A stretch of DNA of 35,660 bases, from UHGV virus genome UHGV-0200663. One strand, written 5' to 3'. Shown piece by piece: positions 4,722 to 34,859 of the stretch. A model generated the notes under the pieces. That model had not been told where the DNA came from and made no database searches. It saw only the letters and a list, made by a program, of their open reading frames with translations. This DNA comes from a virus. How positions within the stretch are numbered: position 1 is the stretch's first letter; each line of letters starts with the position of its first letter. The position numbers and the translations under genes were made by a program.

Positions 4722-5238
4722 CGGGACGCTCCGGCCAGTTGATGGAGTAAAAGGAGGCTTCGTCAGTAACGGTGCTTAAATCCAGAGCCTTTACCGCTTT
4801 GATATATGCCATCCACTGCGTAAGACGCGCTTTATCATCGTCGCTGATGGTGCCCAGCTCCAGCTCGGTTTTCCAGTCGGAGGTGATGTCCTTCGCTTCA
4901 TTCAGCAGGCTCTGGCGTTGTTTTTCTGCCAGTTGCGAATAATCAACAGGAACCGGCAGCACTTCGCCGTCTTTGTAATACCAGCAGGCTTCAATGCCAA
5001 AACCTTCCGGCAGTTCATCCACTTCCACAATGGTGAAGCCAGCCGGATAAAGACGGGACACGTCTTCCGCCATTGAATAAATCACGCCGGTTTCCGGGTG
5101 AATACACAATTTGTATTTCTTCGTGAATTTATCCAGTGATTCATAAAAATCCTGTCCGTCTTCACTGCGGAAATACTGAATGTTTTCACCATAAGGCATC
5201 TCTTCCGGGTAATAACGCGTGACGTTTCTGAGTTCCAT
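4708..5238 (-). CDS. Tail fibre assembly chaperone (U-like, first cassette)
   Basis: C-terminal ..FYSINWPERP motif typical of tail fibre assembly proteins. ATG at 5238 preceded by AAGGAG; the ORF-track start at 5274 would overlap the upstream gene. Confidence 0.65.
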   Translation of the reverse strand: MELRNVTRYYPEEMPYGENIQYFRSEDGQDFYESLDKFTKKYKLCIHPETGVIYSMAEDVSRLYPAGFTIVEVDELPEGFGIEACWYYKDGEVLPVPVDYSQLAEKQRQSLLNEAKDITSDWKTELELGTISDDDKARLTQWMAYIKAVKALDLSTVTDEASFYSINWPERPDAAA

Positions 5239-5252
5239 TATTTTCTCCTTAA

Positions 5253-6062
5253 TTAGCCGGATACCGTGCGCCATCCGCCATTGATATAAATCTGAGTTTG
5301 TTTGTAATACACGCCGCCGATGTTATCCGCAGAGCTCCTGCCAGTATCCTGAACGTTAATACCTGACAAAATACAACCTGAAGGCGCGCGAAATACCCAG
5401 GAAATTTCGTTACCACCGGGATTGTGAAACACTTCGCTGGTGTATCTGAAATCACGCACAGCGCCGGAATCGGTGCTGCTGATGGTGATATCGCTGGTGC
5501 CATCAAACAGCACATTGTTAATCCTGCGGGCCGTCTGAAGCCGGGTTGCCGTTCCGGCATTGCCACTGATGTTGCTGATGGTGATATCCGAAGACAGGGC
5601 CATGCCGTTGACCCTGCGGGTATTCGGTACAGCACTATTAGCTTTATTTACCGTGTCACGTAATGAAAGTGCGTCGATAATTTCACTGGCTGTGTTTTTC
5701 CCGAGAATACCGCGCACAAAAGCACTGAGCGGCGTTAATGCCATTGTGTCTTCGCCCGTAAAATACGGGAACGTATTATTCTGACCGGTTAATCCGGCAA
5801 TAGCTCCGGCTGAACCACTGTTCGTAATAAACAGTTTTTTCAGCGCCGTCATAATCTGGTCGGTGGTGTTTTTATCCGGTTTGATATTTGCCTGCCGGAG
5901 AATTTCCAGCAGTTCGGACTGAATAATATTAAACCAGTCCGGCCCCGGATAGGTGGGCGGAATACCATTCCCGCCTTCGGTAAAATAAAGCGTTGTTTTG
6001 CTTAATTCAGCCGCGACAGGTGGCATCACCGGCACACCCGTCGGATTATCCACATGAAACAT
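5253..6062 (-). CDS. Short tail fibre protein (Mu S / P2 H-like)
   Basis: N-terminus MFHVDNPTGV...; internal FPYFTG motif and C-terminal ..YINGGWRTV resemble P2 H / Mu S family fibres. ATG at 6062 with GGAG upstream. Confidence 0.65.
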   Translation of the reverse strand: MFHVDNPTGVPVMPPVAAELSKTTLYFTEGGNGIPPTYPGPDWFNIIQSELLEILRQANIKPDKNTTDQIMTALKKLFITNSGSAGAIAGLTGQNNTFPYFTGEDTMALTPLSAFVRGILGKNTASEIIDALSLRDTVNKANSAVPNTRRVNGMALSSDITISNISGNAGTATRLQTARRINNVLFDGTSDITISSTDSGAVRDFRYTSEVFHNPGGNEISWVFRAPSGCILSGINVQDTGRSSADNIGGVYYKQTQIYINGGWRTVSG

Positions 6063-26946: not shown

Positions 26947-27396
26947 TTAAGGGCGTCGTGGCGGACGACGAACGGGGTGAGGCAGGTTCGGGGAGGGGTA
27001 AAACAAATCCGGCTGGTATTTATTGCGCTCCAGACGTCGCATCCGTTTGATGGCCTTGTAGACGGTTTTATACGTCACCCCGTAACGCTGAACCAGTTCA
27101 GGAATATTATGGCCGTTAAAATCACGCCAGATACGCATATCCCGGACAAGATTCTCCAGAATATTCCCCCTCGGAACATAAACCTGCATCCCGCCGATAT
27201 GGCGACAAATCGCCACAACCAGCTCAAGGGAATGGGCAGGGTCTGCGCCAATCCGGGCCAGCTCTTTACGCAGCAGTGCGTTCAGTTCAGAAAGTAACGC
27301 CGGATAAGCGGTGTTTTCCTGGTAATCATGAAGATATTCCAGAACGCTGTCGTCCCGGAGGTCTTCGAATAAATCCTGCTCTTTCATCTGTTTCAT
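26947..27396 (-). CDS. mor: Mor/C-family transcriptional activator (middle/late gene activator)
   Basis: 149 aa in ATGA overlap with the gemA-like gene, as gemA-mor in Mu. Conserved C-terminal region ..HSLELVVAICRHIGGMQVYVPRG...RIWRDFNG...YGVTYKTVYKAIKRMRR.. Confidence 0.6.
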   Translation of the reverse strand: MKQMKEQDLFEDLRDDSVLEYLHDYQENTAYPALLSELNALLRKELARIGADPAHSLELVVAICRHIGGMQVYVPRGNILENLVRDMRIWRDFNGHNIPELVQRYGVTYKTVYKAIKRMRRLERNKYQPDLFYPSPNLPHPVRRPPRRP

Positions 27397-27956
27397 ACAG
27401 CAATTCTCCCGCTGTTTCGTGCACGGGCATACGCACTGGTCAGTGCATCATAGCCGCGCAGCTCCCGCCCAGTTTCGCTCACAGGTAAAGGCACACCATG
27501 TCGGGCAAAGGCTTCACGGATGCAGCGCATATGCCACTGTTTGAGCGTTTCAAGCACAACCTGCAACGATTCCCCGTGACACCATGCCAGCGTGGAAACA
27601 CCCTGACCGCCATTACGTCTGGCTGTCAGGCGCTCAACGTATTTGTCCAGCGCAGCGTCGCTGATATCGGAAACGAAACCATCAAGGAACATCTGCTGCC
27701 AGATTTTGTAAATCTTCTCGCGCGGTGTGACATGCCCCTTAAAGCGACGGCGGGGATGTTTTTTCTGCTTCTTAAAACCGCGCTCTTTCATGGCATCGAG
27801 CACCCGTTCCAGTTGTGCAACGGACAGCTCGCGGCAACTGGTTTTGCCCGTGCACTGCACCAGAAAGGCGCGGTAAGTGTCATCGTCGAGTTGTAGATCG
27901 CGACGGGCGACATGAATTAATTTAATCAATGATGCGCGCATGATGCGTATCTCCAT
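27393..27956 (-). CDS. gemA: GemA-like early regulatory protein
   Basis: 187 aa immediately upstream of and coupled to the Mor-like gene, as in Mu. Confidence 0.5.
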   Translation of the reverse strand: MEIRIMRASLIKLIHVARRDLQLDDDTYRAFLVQCTGKTSCRELSVAQLERVLDAMKERGFKKQKKHPRRRFKGHVTPREKIYKIWQQMFLDGFVSDISDAALDKYVERLTARRNGGQGVSTLAWCHGESLQVVLETLKQWHMRCIREAFARHGVPLPVSETGRELRGYDALTSAYARARNSGRIAV

Positions 27957-28004
27957 GAAGGCGGTGTTGCTGCACCGCCCTGAACGTATTAAAGGATTTG
28001 ATTC

Positions 28005-28400
28005 ATGAAAATTGATCTGGAAATAATGAAAACCATTTTTAACGTTTTAATTGATTCTCCTGACGTATTCATAAAAAACACAGAACTCTCCGATGCTGTA
28101 CCCGACGAGAACGCGCTTTACTTTCACTTTCTGTTAATGCTGGATAATGGTTTTATTACCGGAACAGACCTGTTATCCACACCAGAATCAACAGGCGTTC
28201 ATTCCGGTCGAGACAAGGTTTCTTTCAGGTGCCGGTATATCCGTTTGTCACAGCGCGGTCTGGATTTTGCTAACGCACTGAACCAGCCGAAAATAATGAC
28301 CAGGCTCAAAAAAATCTGCATGGACGCTTCAATGGACATTCTTGTGTCTACAGGAAAATCCCTTATGAGCAACTGGATTCAGGAGCAACTGCACCTGTAG
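28005..28400 (+). CDS. Counter-oriented hypothetical protein (131 aa), candidate moron
   Basis: Only plus-strand ORF in a gap of the minus-strand early operon; ATG with AAGGA 8 nt upstream; visibly AT-richer than flanking phage DNA; 3' end overlaps the convergent minus-strand gene by 38 nt. Confidence 0.5.
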   Translation: MKIDLEIMKTIFNVLIDSPDVFIKNTELSDAVPDENALYFHFLLMLDNGFITGTDLLSTPESTGVHSGRDKVSFRCRYIRLSQRGLDFANALNQPKIMTRLKKICMDASMDILVSTGKSLMSNWIQEQLHL

Positions 28401-28698
28401 CATTCAGCAGATTCACCAGAGCGCTGGCCGCAATTGCTGCGGCCAGACAATCACCGCTATAACAAGCATTGTCGACAACGCTTTTTATTATTCTGATCAG
28501 CGATGGAAGTGTGGTGTTTTCCATAATTTCCAGCTTGTACTGCTTCAGCCAGTATTCATATTCAGCTTCATCAAATGGAAGCTGTCCCATCAGTTCTGTC
28601 AGAGTTGTATCGGCCTGCTCCGGTGTATATCCACTGACAACCAGTTGCGCCCGCATTTCAGCCCGATATTTAGGGTCGTCATAAATATGCTTACTCAT
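28363..28698 (-). CDS. Hypothetical early protein (111 aa)
   Basis: ATG at 28698 in ATGAGTAA overlap with upstream stop; the alternative ATG at 28731 lacks an RBS. Confidence 0.4.
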   Translation of the reverse strand: MSKHIYDDPKYRAEMRAQLVVSGYTPEQADTTLTELMGQLPFDEAEYEYWLKQYKLEIMENTTLPSLIRIIKSVVDNACYSGDCLAAAIAASALVNLLNATGAVAPESSCS

Positions 28699-28873
28699 TT
28701 CGTAATACCTCTTCGCAATAAAAGATTTCATTGGGATAACGTTTTTGTATGCGCTCCATCACCTGCATACATGCCTGCTCCGCGGGCCAGATTTTTTCCG
28801 TTACCGGAATGGCATCGCAGGCATCATTCCCACAGGTGCCAACCAGCAGGACAAAGCCAATTGACTTAATCAT
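28691..28873 (-). CDS. Small Cys-rich protein with N-terminal hydrophobic signal-like segment (60 aa)
   Basis: MIKSIGFVLLVGTCGNDAC..; four cysteines; ATG in ATGATTAA overlap with the upstream stop. Confidence 0.35.
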   Translation of the reverse strand: MIKSIGFVLLVGTCGNDACDAIPVTEKIWPAEQACMQVMERIQKRYPNEIFYCEEVLRNE

Positions 28874-29503: not shown

Positions 29504-30028
29504 TTAAATACCGGCTTCCTGTTCAAACGGAATAATAGAAAAATCTTCAATGCCCGATTTAACTGTAATTCCGGCAACACCTGCGACCGCTTTCGGTTCC
29601 AGTAAAATCGCTTCCTTGTTGATTTCCTGTTTCGTGCGAATAAAGCGTTGCAGGCCAAGACGCTCCAGTGTTTCCATCACCGCATCCACACCGCGAATAC
29701 TTACCGATGGTGGGCGCTGACGCCATGACACATCGCCGGTTACCAGGTTCGCCGTCTTCACCTTGCCGCCGTTCGTCAGTTCGTCACGGTTCGCTTCACA
29801 CCATCCCTGAACGCCTTTTGAAAGGGTTTCAATACTGGTTTTAAGGGGTGCAATCTGTGAGGCGTATTTCTCCGTAATCTCAGCGATAGCGTCATTCATT
29901 TCCGTTTCAAGTCGTGCCGCTTCGCGTTGCAGGTCACCAATCCGGCGGATATCACATACCACGGCATCGCGGGATTGCGGAACATAAGCCGCTGCGGCGT
30001 TCTTGATTCGTTTTGCTGGTTTAGCCAT
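29504..30028 (-). CDS. gam: Gam host-nuclease inhibitor (DNA end-binding protein)
   Basis: 174 aa, MAKPAKRIK...AAYVPQ..RDAV..RIGDLQRE..RLETEMNDAIAEITEK... closely matches Mu Gam from recall. Confidence 0.8.
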   Translation of the reverse strand: MAKPAKRIKNAAAAYVPQSRDAVVCDIRRIGDLQREAARLETEMNDAIAEITEKYASQIAPLKTSIETLSKGVQGWCEANRDELTNGGKVKTANLVTGDVSWRQRPPSVSIRGVDAVMETLERLGLQRFIRTKQEINKEAILLEPKAVAGVAGITVKSGIEDFSIIPFEQEAGI

Positions 30029-31879: not shown

Positions 31880-33871
31880 TTAAATGGCTTTTTTACGTCT
31901 TTTCTGTTCCAGAATATCCAGTGACTGATTCAGATATTCATCACGAGCGGGTTCGTATTTATCATCGGGGGTGCGATATTTAACCCGTACTGTGTTACCC
32001 ACAGGCCGGAAAATACCAACAACCCTTGATTCTGGTGCTGCTGGTTCGGCTATCTGCGGCAGCAGTTCAGCAACTTCCAGCGCGTCCATTTGTTTCTGCG
32101 CCTTAATGGCTGCTTTAGTTGCAGATTTCAGTTGTTTCTGGCGGCGGCGATATTCACGGCCTGCCGCAGCATCATTAAATGCAACAGGTGCCAAACATTC
32201 CGCTTCACAGATAAACCGACCGTCTAGGGTGTAGCAATAAACTGTGCTGTGTAGCTGCTGCGGATCAAACCTGACCACAACTTTTTTCACGCCTGCATTC
32301 ATTAACGCCATGTTGTAATAAACGTTTTTCGCGCCTTTAAGGGAGCCGCCAACTTTAAGCGTAAACTCGCCTTTGCGTGAAACGTTCACCGCTTCGGCAG
32401 GCAGTAACAGCATCCGTTTTTGTTCTTCGGTTGGCTTACGCACAATCGTTCTGGCGTATTCACGCTCGAAAACATCATCAAACGAGAGTTTGCCCCCGCA
32501 CATTTCTGTTTCACGGCCTGTTCTGGCATTGAACATCGCCACACCTTCAGCAAGGGTTTTCAGAAACAGCTCTGCATCAACAGCACGGTCGCCATAGTTA
32601 TCAGGTTTTGCCTGCGGATTTGGCCCCGTATATGCGCCAGCCAGTGCCGGATGCTTATCAACGTATTCCTCAAGCCCACCAACACCGAAAGCACGTTCAA
32701 CAGGTTTTGCCTGGCCCCAGCCTTTACCGGCAACAACGCTTGTCCAGTGCATTTTCGCGCCCATCAGTAAAAACAGTCCCTTTGGGTCGTCCTCTTTCAC
32801 CTTAAAGCGGTAACGATTGGGCGCGCCCCCCGTCAGCCATTTATTCGCTGCCCCACGGGTGTTATCAATGGTGATGTGAAAATCTTCCGGGATGCCGTAG
32901 CGTGTCACCACATCCATGAACGAGAGGCGAATTGAATCAATGTTCTCGCTCACATCGCAGCGCCAGCCCAGAATTTTTCGGGTTTTCACATCCTGCCAGA
33001 ACCATGTTTTCGGGCGGATCACATCACCGTTAAACCAGCGTACAAAGACGTTATGCAGATAACCGTCGCCGTTGATCCACTGCATGGCGTCCAGGTGTTC
33101 CACAGTTCGCTGCTGTGCCGGTATCAGATGCATCAGTGCATGTTCACCTTCACGGCAGGCAACAACCATTGCCTCGTCCAGTTGCTGAATCCGGCGAAAG
33201 GCCGTGGCACGGGAGGGAATATTCCAGCCATGCTCACGTGCTGCCAGTTCCAGACGCTCATAACATTTGCGAAAGGCGGGTTTTTCCGGTCGCAGATAAT
33301 CTGCAATCAGAAACTGCCAGGCATCCTCGTCAAATTCACTTTTGTGAACGTTGCGACGGGATGCACCACGTCCATCAACAAGCGCAGCCGCCCAGTCAGG
33401 CTTCGCAAACTTCTGTACCTGGTAATACTTGTCACGCAAAGTGGATGCACTGACCTGGTAATGCCCTGCAACGGTCGCAAAAGCCGTTTTTGTTGAAATC
33501 CCCTGGTTCAGCATTTCGTCTGCGGCCTGAACTGCAGGCAACCATTTTTCAGCAAGTCTGCGCTGGGAATCGCTGGCGTTATCCCATTTGCTCCACAGCA
33601 CCTCACGATCATAATCGTGGGCTTCCAGCGTGGGGCGGGCGATTTCAAAACGGCCCTGGCTTGTTTCAATCTCTCCTTGTCTAAGCAATAACGCCGCTTT
33701 CGCTTCAACAGGTAAAGAGTTAGCATTGTATTCAATTGCTTTACCTCCTTTGACACCTGCTCTAGTGCGGTTTTGCCATCCTTGCTTCTTAGCGACATAA
33801 ATCACACCAGCTGATGTTTTCGGCAAGCCAGGAAGATTTGCACACTCTTTCGGTGACACCCAAAGTTCCAT
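31880..33871 (-). CDS. A: MuA DDE transposase
   Basis: From ATG at 33871, [35 protein letters not shown]... matches the Mu transposase N-terminus from recall; 663 aa; start overlaps ner stop. Confidence 0.9.
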
Positions 33872-33872
33872 A

Positions 33873-34100
33873 TTATTCACCTGCTTGATATCGGCTAGGC
33901 CAGATGACTTCCGGTTTAGTTTCAAGGGCGTTAGCAATAATCTGTTCGCCCTTTGGCCAGTGCCGTTCTAGCGCATTAGCTAATGTTGTTGGCGCATAAC
34001 CAAACTGCCGAGAAAGAGCTGATAAAGAGAGCTTTCTTTTCTTAAGTCCCGCAATCACATCAGCACGATGCCAATCACGGACCTTTTCGTTGGAACACAT
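33873..34100 (-). CDS. ner: Ner DNA-binding early regulator
   Basis: 75 aa, first early gene after the operator region, divergent from the repressor gene. Confidence 0.8.
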
Positions 34101-34268
34101 TTAAAAACCCTCCTAAGTTTTGTAATCTATAAAGTTAGCAATTTAACTAAGTGCAAAAACTTAGTTTACTTGCCAAAAAGATAAATACTGAAAAGTCTTT
34201 TGTAAAGTAACTTTTTAGTATTGTTGGCTATGTTTTGTGTATTACATTGAAAAATAAGGGTTTAAATT
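34101..34268. promoter_or_regulatory. Repressor/Ner operator region with divergent early and repressor promoters
   Basis: AT-rich 168-bp divergent intergenic region with repeated CTAAGTT/AACTTAG and GAAAAGT motifs between c and ner. Confidence 0.6.
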
Positions 34269-34859
34269 TTGAAAAGTAACTTTATAGAATCTGGTGATAC
34301 TAAAAAGTCAATCTGGTGTACGCCGCAAGAAATTATGGCTGCTGATGGTATGCCTGGATCTGTTGCAGGTGTTCACTATCGGGCAAATGTTCAAGGCTGG
34401 ACAAAGCGAAAAAAGGAAGGTGTGAAAGGGGGGAAAGCAGTTGAATACGATGTGATGTCTATGCCCACCAAAGAACGAGAGCAAGTTATTGCACACCTAG
34501 GTCTGTCTATTCCTGGCACTGCTGCTCAAGCTAATGAGCCGCAGGATTCTTCGGAGCTGATAAACAAATTAACCACAACCTTAATCAATATGATTGAAGA
34601 ACTGGAACCAGATGAGGCACGTAAGGCACTGAAACTATTAAGCAAAGGTGGGCTACTGGCGTTAATGCCACTTGTATTTAATGAACAGAAGCTTTACAGC
34701 TTTATAGGATTTTCACAGCAAAGTATCCAGACGTTGATGATGCTAGATGCATTACCTGAAGAAAAACGCAAAGAGATTTTGTCAAAGTATGGGATTAATG
34801 AACAGGAGAGTCTTGTAGCTCCTTTGCAGGATCCACAAGATGTAAAAAAAGCCGTATAA
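34269..34859 (+). CDS. c: Mu-type c repressor
   Basis: 196 aa, MKSNFIE...SIWC.PQEIMAADGMPGSVAGVHYRANVQGWTKRKKEGVKGGKAVEYDV.. matches Mu repressor from recall; first codon in this frame is TTG; divergent from ner. Confidence 0.8.
   Translation: MKSNFIESGDTKKSIWCTPQEIMAADGMPGSVAGVHYRANVQGWTKRKKEGVKGGKAVEYDVMSMPTKEREQVIAHLGLSIPGTAAQANEPQDSSELINKLTTTLINMIEELEPDEARKALKLLSKGGLLALMPLVFNEQKLYSFIGFSQQSIQTLMMLDALPEEKRKEILSKYGINEQESLVAPLQDPQDVKKAV

Follow-up and report, generated by a model that had tools for sequence, protein, structure and literature searches.

A DUF2513-like winged-helix accessory gene in the counter-oriented gp15 slot of a Mu-like prophage

A 131-codon gene read against the early operon of a Mu-like prophage is a DUF2513-like winged-helix accessory gene in the gp15 slot, both the slot and the DUF2513 family being known already. 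The gene (28005-28400, plus strand) lies in the virus genome UHGV-0200663, the whole 35,660-nucleotide stretch of which was analyzed and is referred to here as the window. The window holds a complete Mu-like prophage in reversed orientation, with transposase A, B, gam, gemA, mor, the lysis genes and the structural genes all on the minus strand; its only substantial plus-strand genes are a repressor-like ORF (34269-34859) and the 131-codon gene itself. Overall, the gene and its convergent partner probably form an exchangeable accessory cassette, the winged-helix product being a small macromolecule-binding modulator made while the early promoter is silent. The apparent anomaly of a backward gene at this position is removed because Mu already has one at the same slot, and the ORF gains both a family and a fold. 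Of comparative interest is that two mutually unrelated convergent pairs, gp14/gp15 on the one hand and the DUF2513-like gene with its partner on the other, alternate at this conserved counter-oriented slot before gemA-mor in Mu-like phages.

The gene starts with an ATG preceded at a distance of 8 nt by a Shine-Dalgarno sequence (AAGGA, 27992-27996), and equivalent sites (AAGGAG or AAGGAA) are present 5' of the homologues in loci L003, L016 and L017. It is flanked by gam (29504-30028, minus strand) and gemA, and shares its 3' terminal 38 nt with a convergent ORF on the early strand (28363-28731). GC content is 42.4% as compared to 54.2% for the window, which places the gene in the 3rd percentile of 396-nt windows, and the convergent partner gene is likewise GC-poor (45%). 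The main features had been described in the first-pass annotation (an opposite-strand ORF of 131 aa with its own ribosome binding site, low in GC, located between gam and gemA and overlapping a convergent early gene), and each is borne out here. On the early strand, the longest ORF across the same stretch is at most 57 aa. The encoded protein is soluble and acidic (pI 5.9), and no transmembrane segment was detected (maximum 19-residue Kyte-Doolittle mean of 1.08; the confident structural model is globular). The stretch 28005-28400 is a real gene, because it has full-length homologues in 56 sequence clusters, a conserved MKIDLDY N-terminus and an AlphaFold model with a pLDDT of 96.4.

Scans of the 131-aa protein against Pfam and NCBIfam returned no match (none in Pfam even at E ≤ 1), a word-indexed homology search recovered only a near-identical cluster, and a scan of genome contigs with the single protein retrieved no relative. 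The 56 cluster representatives were obtained by an exhaustive HMMER search; nearly all are 126-148 aa long, match over their full length and extend down to 24% identity. The protein also matched PHROG 585, a family of "unknown function", with an E-value of 1.5e-11 (residues 1-130 on positions 1-126 of the 128-position profile), and its relatives match the same profile with E-values of 1e-15 to 1e-25. Motifs common to the family are an N-terminal MKxDLDY, FH..LL.E.GLI and RLT..GHDF. Of the homologues found with HMMER, 46 of 52 matched PF10711 (DUF2513) at E ≤ 0.1 (best E-value 1.7e-13), all 46 colinearly over profile positions ~1-96. When scanned individually, the close relatives from L003, L009 and L016 scored 16-23 bits, below the Pfam gathering cutoff of 29.6 bits, and eight of ten family representatives scored 18-24 bits, with the other two giving no match; thus, all eleven individually scanned relatives with a match lie at 16-24 bits and none reaches the cutoff. 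PGAP and UniRef label homologues as "DUF2513 domain-containing protein". A database protein identical to the 131-aa protein (P0057), which is found on 145 contigs of E. coli and Enterobacteriaceae, carries the UniRef name "DUF2513 domain-containing" and is "hypothetical" in other records. Because 46 of the 52 homologues match the DUF2513 profile and the individually scanned relatives do so below the cutoff, the 131-aa gene is, on these profile scores, a branch on the edge of DUF2513. It resembles PF10711 and PHROG 585 in its full-length PHROG 585 match and its motif layout (MKxDxD, FH..LL.E.GLI, RLT..GHDF), and differs from PF10711 in an additional C-terminal extension of ~35 residues forming two helices. 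Literature searches on DUF2513, PF10711, Mup15 and Mu gp15/gemA returned nothing on function. The statement in the first-pass annotation that no family could be assigned is superseded, as the HMM searches lead to PHROG 585 and a DUF2513 relative and the structure searches to a generic winged helix.

AlphaFold2 modeled the 131-aa protein with high confidence (pLDDT 96.4, pTM 0.88) as a winged helix followed by three helices. The topology of the model (alpha1-beta1-alpha2-alpha3-beta2-beta3) is that of a winged helix-turn-helix fold and matches solved winged helices structurally. A sequence-profile search of the PDB produced chance-level matches only, and searches of BFVD and the PDB (Foldseek) with the model returned only generic winged-helix proteins; no similarity to any characterized inhibitor was found in these searches. 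Compared to MarR/PadR-type regulators, only a core of ~75-85 residues aligns (10-18% identity, TM ~0.44) and the 131-aa protein has no MarR or PadR match in Pfam. Unlike in those regulators, the helix that usually recognizes DNA (helix 3) has a net negative charge in the family, and the wing is long and hypervariable. The family as a whole is acidic (median pI 5.4), with a net charge of -1.8 for helix 3 and -4.8 for residues 1-51, and a basic patch (residues 65-105) is present in the window protein only. DNA binding is thus not assured, given the acidic net charge of the "recognition" helix throughout the family.

The first-pass annotation had stated that Mu carries only same-strand genes between gam and gemA, which proved incorrect: RefSeq Mu gp15 (NC_000929 7896-8162, minus strand, 88 aa) lies between gp14 and gemA in counter-orientation and overlaps gp14 by 62 nt. 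Apart from the repressor gene, no other gene in the early region of Mu is read leftward. Because Mu gp15 fills the same counter-oriented slot, a backward gene before gemA is, judged by gene order, an ordinary arrangement for Mu-like phages. Mu gp15 (Mup15, NP_050619; PHROG 8747) shares with the 131-aa gene the slot between a gp13-like gene and gemA, the counter-orientation, a 3' end overlapping that of the convergent early gene before it (convergence with overlap is also what gp14/gp15 pairs show) and the hairpin before gemA. In contrast, it encodes 88 rather than 131 aa, and the families of its partner, gp14, and of the partner at 28363-28731 differ. The possibility that gp15 is a truncated relative of the 131-aa protein was ruled out, as BLASTP detected no similarity and hhalign gave a probability of 2.9%. 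Mu gp14 was likewise rejected as a member of the partner family, to which gp14 proteins, used as a control, gave no match.

Nucleotide alignments delimit what has been exchanged. Against gp15-type E. coli prophages, homology ends at 27979 and restarts at 28691 (blastn breakpoints against L006, L008 and L007 at 27979/27968 and 28691), and the segment that differs (27980-28690) is the exchanged cassette; by these breakpoints, gp14 and gp15 have given way to two other genes, the 131-aa gene and its convergent partner. Other contents also occur. Against L005 (strain 06-00048), only 27939-28374 is replaced, so that L005 retains the partner and has a same-strand ORF of 111 aa in place of the counter-oriented gene, and in STEC346 a single same-strand ORF of 129 aa fills the slot; some prophages thus have no counter-oriented gene at all. 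Among 5426 complete E. coli genomes, gemA-like DNA was present in 108, gp15-type DNA in 54 and the 131-aa gene in one (STEC383). On this comparative evidence, Mu-like phages keep a "leftward slot" directly upstream of gemA. Because some prophages lack a counter-oriented gene and the 131-aa gene is present in one of 5426 genomes as against 108 with gemA, the gene would be dispensable for the phage. The same Mu-like early region was observed twice in E. coli 06-00048, on a 136-kb plasmid record (L005, NZ_CP012497) and on the chromosome (H19, NZ_CP015229).

The partner (28363-28731, minus strand) belongs to PHROG 27371 and is predicted to be all-helical. It encodes 122 aa from its first ATG and 111 aa from the codon equivalent to 28698, which is the start used by its RefSeq relatives and likely the true one. 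The N-terminal extension of the longest ORF, MKSFIAKRYYEM (28698-28731), also precedes unrelated cassette genes, namely gp14 in L006 and the partner in L145, and probably belongs to a conserved region overlapping gp13. No domain was found when the partner family was compared with Pfam, and every one of its 33 homologues is named "hypothetical". The window partner is 35% identical to that of Klebsiella phage Kp4866-3, and its AlphaFold2 model, a helical bundle of six helices, has low confidence (pLDDT 65). On the other side of the 131-aa gene, directly downstream in the early direction, lies the conserved early gene gemA (gp16; 27393-27956, minus strand; PF06252, E-value 9e-33). Of its two in-frame ATG codons (27956 and 27944), the second, which is preceded by GGAGA and used by RefSeq relatives (183 aa), is the likely start.

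The reading frame of the 131-aa gene is kept well beyond its near-identical copies. Next to gemA and in counter-orientation, homologues at 33-45% identity are present in Klebsiella phage Kp4866-3, a Mu-like element on a Klebsiella plasmid, a 52-kb E. coli record and a metagenomic contig, and a further homologue (37% identity) is placed between gemA and mor. A scan of IMG/VR identified 30 loci with a DUF2513-like gene, of which 20 have Mu-type early genes; in all 20 the DUF2513-like gene (26-45% identity) is opposite to the early genes, as it also is in L003, L009, L010, L016 and L017. In at least 19 of 29 viral loci, a member of the partner family converges on the 3' end of the DUF2513-like gene, with spacings from a 39-nt overlap to a 3-nt gap. 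In the arrangement represented by L009, L161 and L163, both genes are found downstream of gemA and therefore moved as a unit. DUF2513-like genes outside Mu-like elements, on phage-plasmids and on a plasmid-like contig with ArdC, hok and relBE, have no partner and occur in various orientations. Recombination at conserved flanks may be all that links the two genes, since L005 keeps the partner without the 131-aa gene and the non-Mu homologues have none.

One edge of the exchanged segment is marked by a perfect hairpin (27960-27979), a palindrome of the form GGCGGTG-N6-CACCGCC with a 7-bp stem, which separates the counter-oriented gene from the ribosome site of gemA and lies 3-9 nt upstream of the Shine-Dalgarno sequence of the latter. 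Mu has it as well, with the gp15 start on one side and the gemA ribosome site on the other, and it is also found in Tongde, KFu019, RIVM, STEC383 and Kp4866-3. Among Mu and the many Mu-like phages that carry the hairpin together with a counter-oriented gene from one or the other family, only the loop varies, the stem being invariant. All examined prophages with a counter-oriented gene of either type have the hairpin except L016 and L010 (with one stem mismatch in L017), and it is missing from L005 and L007, where the upstream gene is on the same strand and overlaps the gemA start. As a survey tool the hairpin pattern alone was too generic, with most of its 120 IMG/VR matches being unrelated; it did lead to 12 further Mu-like loci in IMG/VR in which a counter-oriented ORF begins 22-34 nt past the hairpin, and all of these ORFs encode divergent gp15-family proteins bar one doubtful ORF (L117). 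An operator repeated elsewhere in the prophage was ruled out, as the hairpin is present as a single copy in the window, and it is not an operator specific to the 131-aa protein because it also accompanies the unrelated gp15. Possible roles are those of an RNA stabilizer, an insulator or a protein site. The distribution of the hairpin fits a role in which it may serve as a stabilizer or insulator for the gemA-mor portion of the early mRNA, which follows a long untranslated antisense stretch.

Expression of the 131-aa protein from the prophage is plausible because of the orientation of the gene. Read against the early operon and in the direction of the repressor gene, it would be made from its own leftward transcript, which would be favored when the early promoter is repressed, that is, in lysogeny or in the first moments of infection. 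During lytic growth, convergent early transcription and early RNA complementary to the whole gene would both work against the leftward transcript. Being alone, without an enzymatic or membrane part, the winged helix would most likely act by binding one macromolecule, either protein or nucleic acid, and the protein would be a small modulator that the phage can do without. An independent leftward transcript is assumed, since no promoter or terminator was found here or in the relatives: consensus scans, which are weak, detected no sigma-70-like site (≥9/12) upstream of the 131-aa gene and no adjacent terminator, and nothing consistent in the relatives. A terminator-like site (GCCTGCTCCGCGGGC followed by CAGATTTTTT; 28773-28797, plus strand) is present 373 nt past the 131-aa stop codon, inside the gp13-like gene, and could end the leftward transcript, although the count of such sites in the region equals chance expectation. 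In Mu (L015, 2507-2534, plus strand), a sigma-70-like site (TTCTCA-16-TAAAAT, 9/12) lies antisense within gp15 and points to gemA; it could correspond to a promoter of the gem operon and is within chance expectation.

A broader reading covers both gene pairs: Mu-like phages would keep a dedicated leftward unit before gemA-mor, mostly marked by the hairpin and filled by either of the unrelated pairs, as a module for lysogeny or for timing. We regard this generalization as doubtful. If true, the unit might time gemA-mor expression or act against related incoming phages, and the winged-helix protein would work together with its convergent partner.

The first-pass annotation had interpreted the gene as a moron. 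As far as an accessory cassette is concerned this interpretation has stood, since it fits a real, counter-oriented, compositionally deviant and exchangeable gene; a role in protecting the lysogen by superinfection exclusion or anti-phage defense is unlikely. Such a role would agree with the counter-orientation in the repressor direction, the low GC content and the exchangeable slot with its alternative cargo, and it has precedent in the counter-strand exclusion genes olg1/gene 10 of the transposable Pseudomonas phage Fc02 (PMC9936078), a paper in which HK97 gp15 is cited as a classical moron. With these genes the 131-aa gene shares an accessory position within an operon, deviant composition (42.4% vs 54.2% GC) and presence or absence among close relatives, as seen in the alternative slot contents. 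Unlike classical morons, it has no identifiable promoter or terminator and no exclusion-type features, and the cassette takes the place of another gene pair and is not an insertion between neighboring genes. Searches of PADLOC-DB at E ≤ 1 gave no match for the 131-aa protein, three of its relatives, the gp15-type homologue of L006 or the partner. Also against a protective function, the protein consists of a single winged helix with no transmembrane segment, effector or enzymatic domain, the transcription signals expected of a moron were not detected by the scans, and its homologues are found in varied, non-defense contexts.

Quite unlikely, too, is that the counter-oriented unit serves as a brake or timer on the early-to-middle switch of the phage, lowering or delaying gemA-mor expression through convergent transcription, through a stretch of ~360-400 nt of early RNA that goes untranslated ahead of gemA, or by joint action of the protein and its partner. 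The unit does lie immediately upstream of gemA-mor in most Mu-like loci, its convergent overlapping architecture is kept by two unrelated gene pairs, and the hairpin beside the gemA ribosome site goes with a counter-oriented gene and is absent where a same-strand upstream gene overlaps the gemA start. However, both proteins are conserved as proteins, so that a purely cis-acting role is insufficient, and some prophages have no counter-oriented gene, L016 and L010 have no hairpin, and in phages of the L009 type the pair comes after gemA.

We give little credence to an anti-defense or host-takeover role, in which the protein, being small and acidic, would bind to a protein of the host and inhibit it. 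In favor of such a role, the early region of Mu encodes many small host-directed proteins, the family is acidic, including its helix 3, and a plasmid-like contig carries one homologue in the vicinity of ArdC, hok and relB/yafQ. The orientation against the early operon is nevertheless the wrong one for a function needed at lytic onset, and the protein has no similarity to any characterized inhibitor. Finally, that the ORF is spurious, the stretch being no more than a non-coding spacer in the early transcript, for which the lack of a predicted promoter could be cited, has next to no probability and is effectively refuted by conservation: the 56 full-length homologue clusters, the syntenic homologues, the confident fold and the conserved Shine-Dalgarno site.

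The exchangeable accessory cassette, with its winged-helix modulator made when the early promoter is silent, stays our preferred reading. DUF2513-like genes were also observed in other settings. On the plasmid-like contig L012, a 29%-identical DUF2513-like gene (5001-5438) adjoins relB/yafQ, hok and the ArdC anti-restriction gene. Such genes are standard in non-mobilizable records of ~48-52 kb and ~110 kb from E. coli and Klebsiella (L018/L002 and L019), which are apparently phage-plasmid-like and in which the gene stands beside ParB-like genes or a pair encoding an SbcCD-like ATPase and phosphoesterase. Within the window, the lowest GC content (~35%) is reached between the transposase A start and the repressor-like ORF (33860-34140), in what is presumably the operator and early-promoter region.
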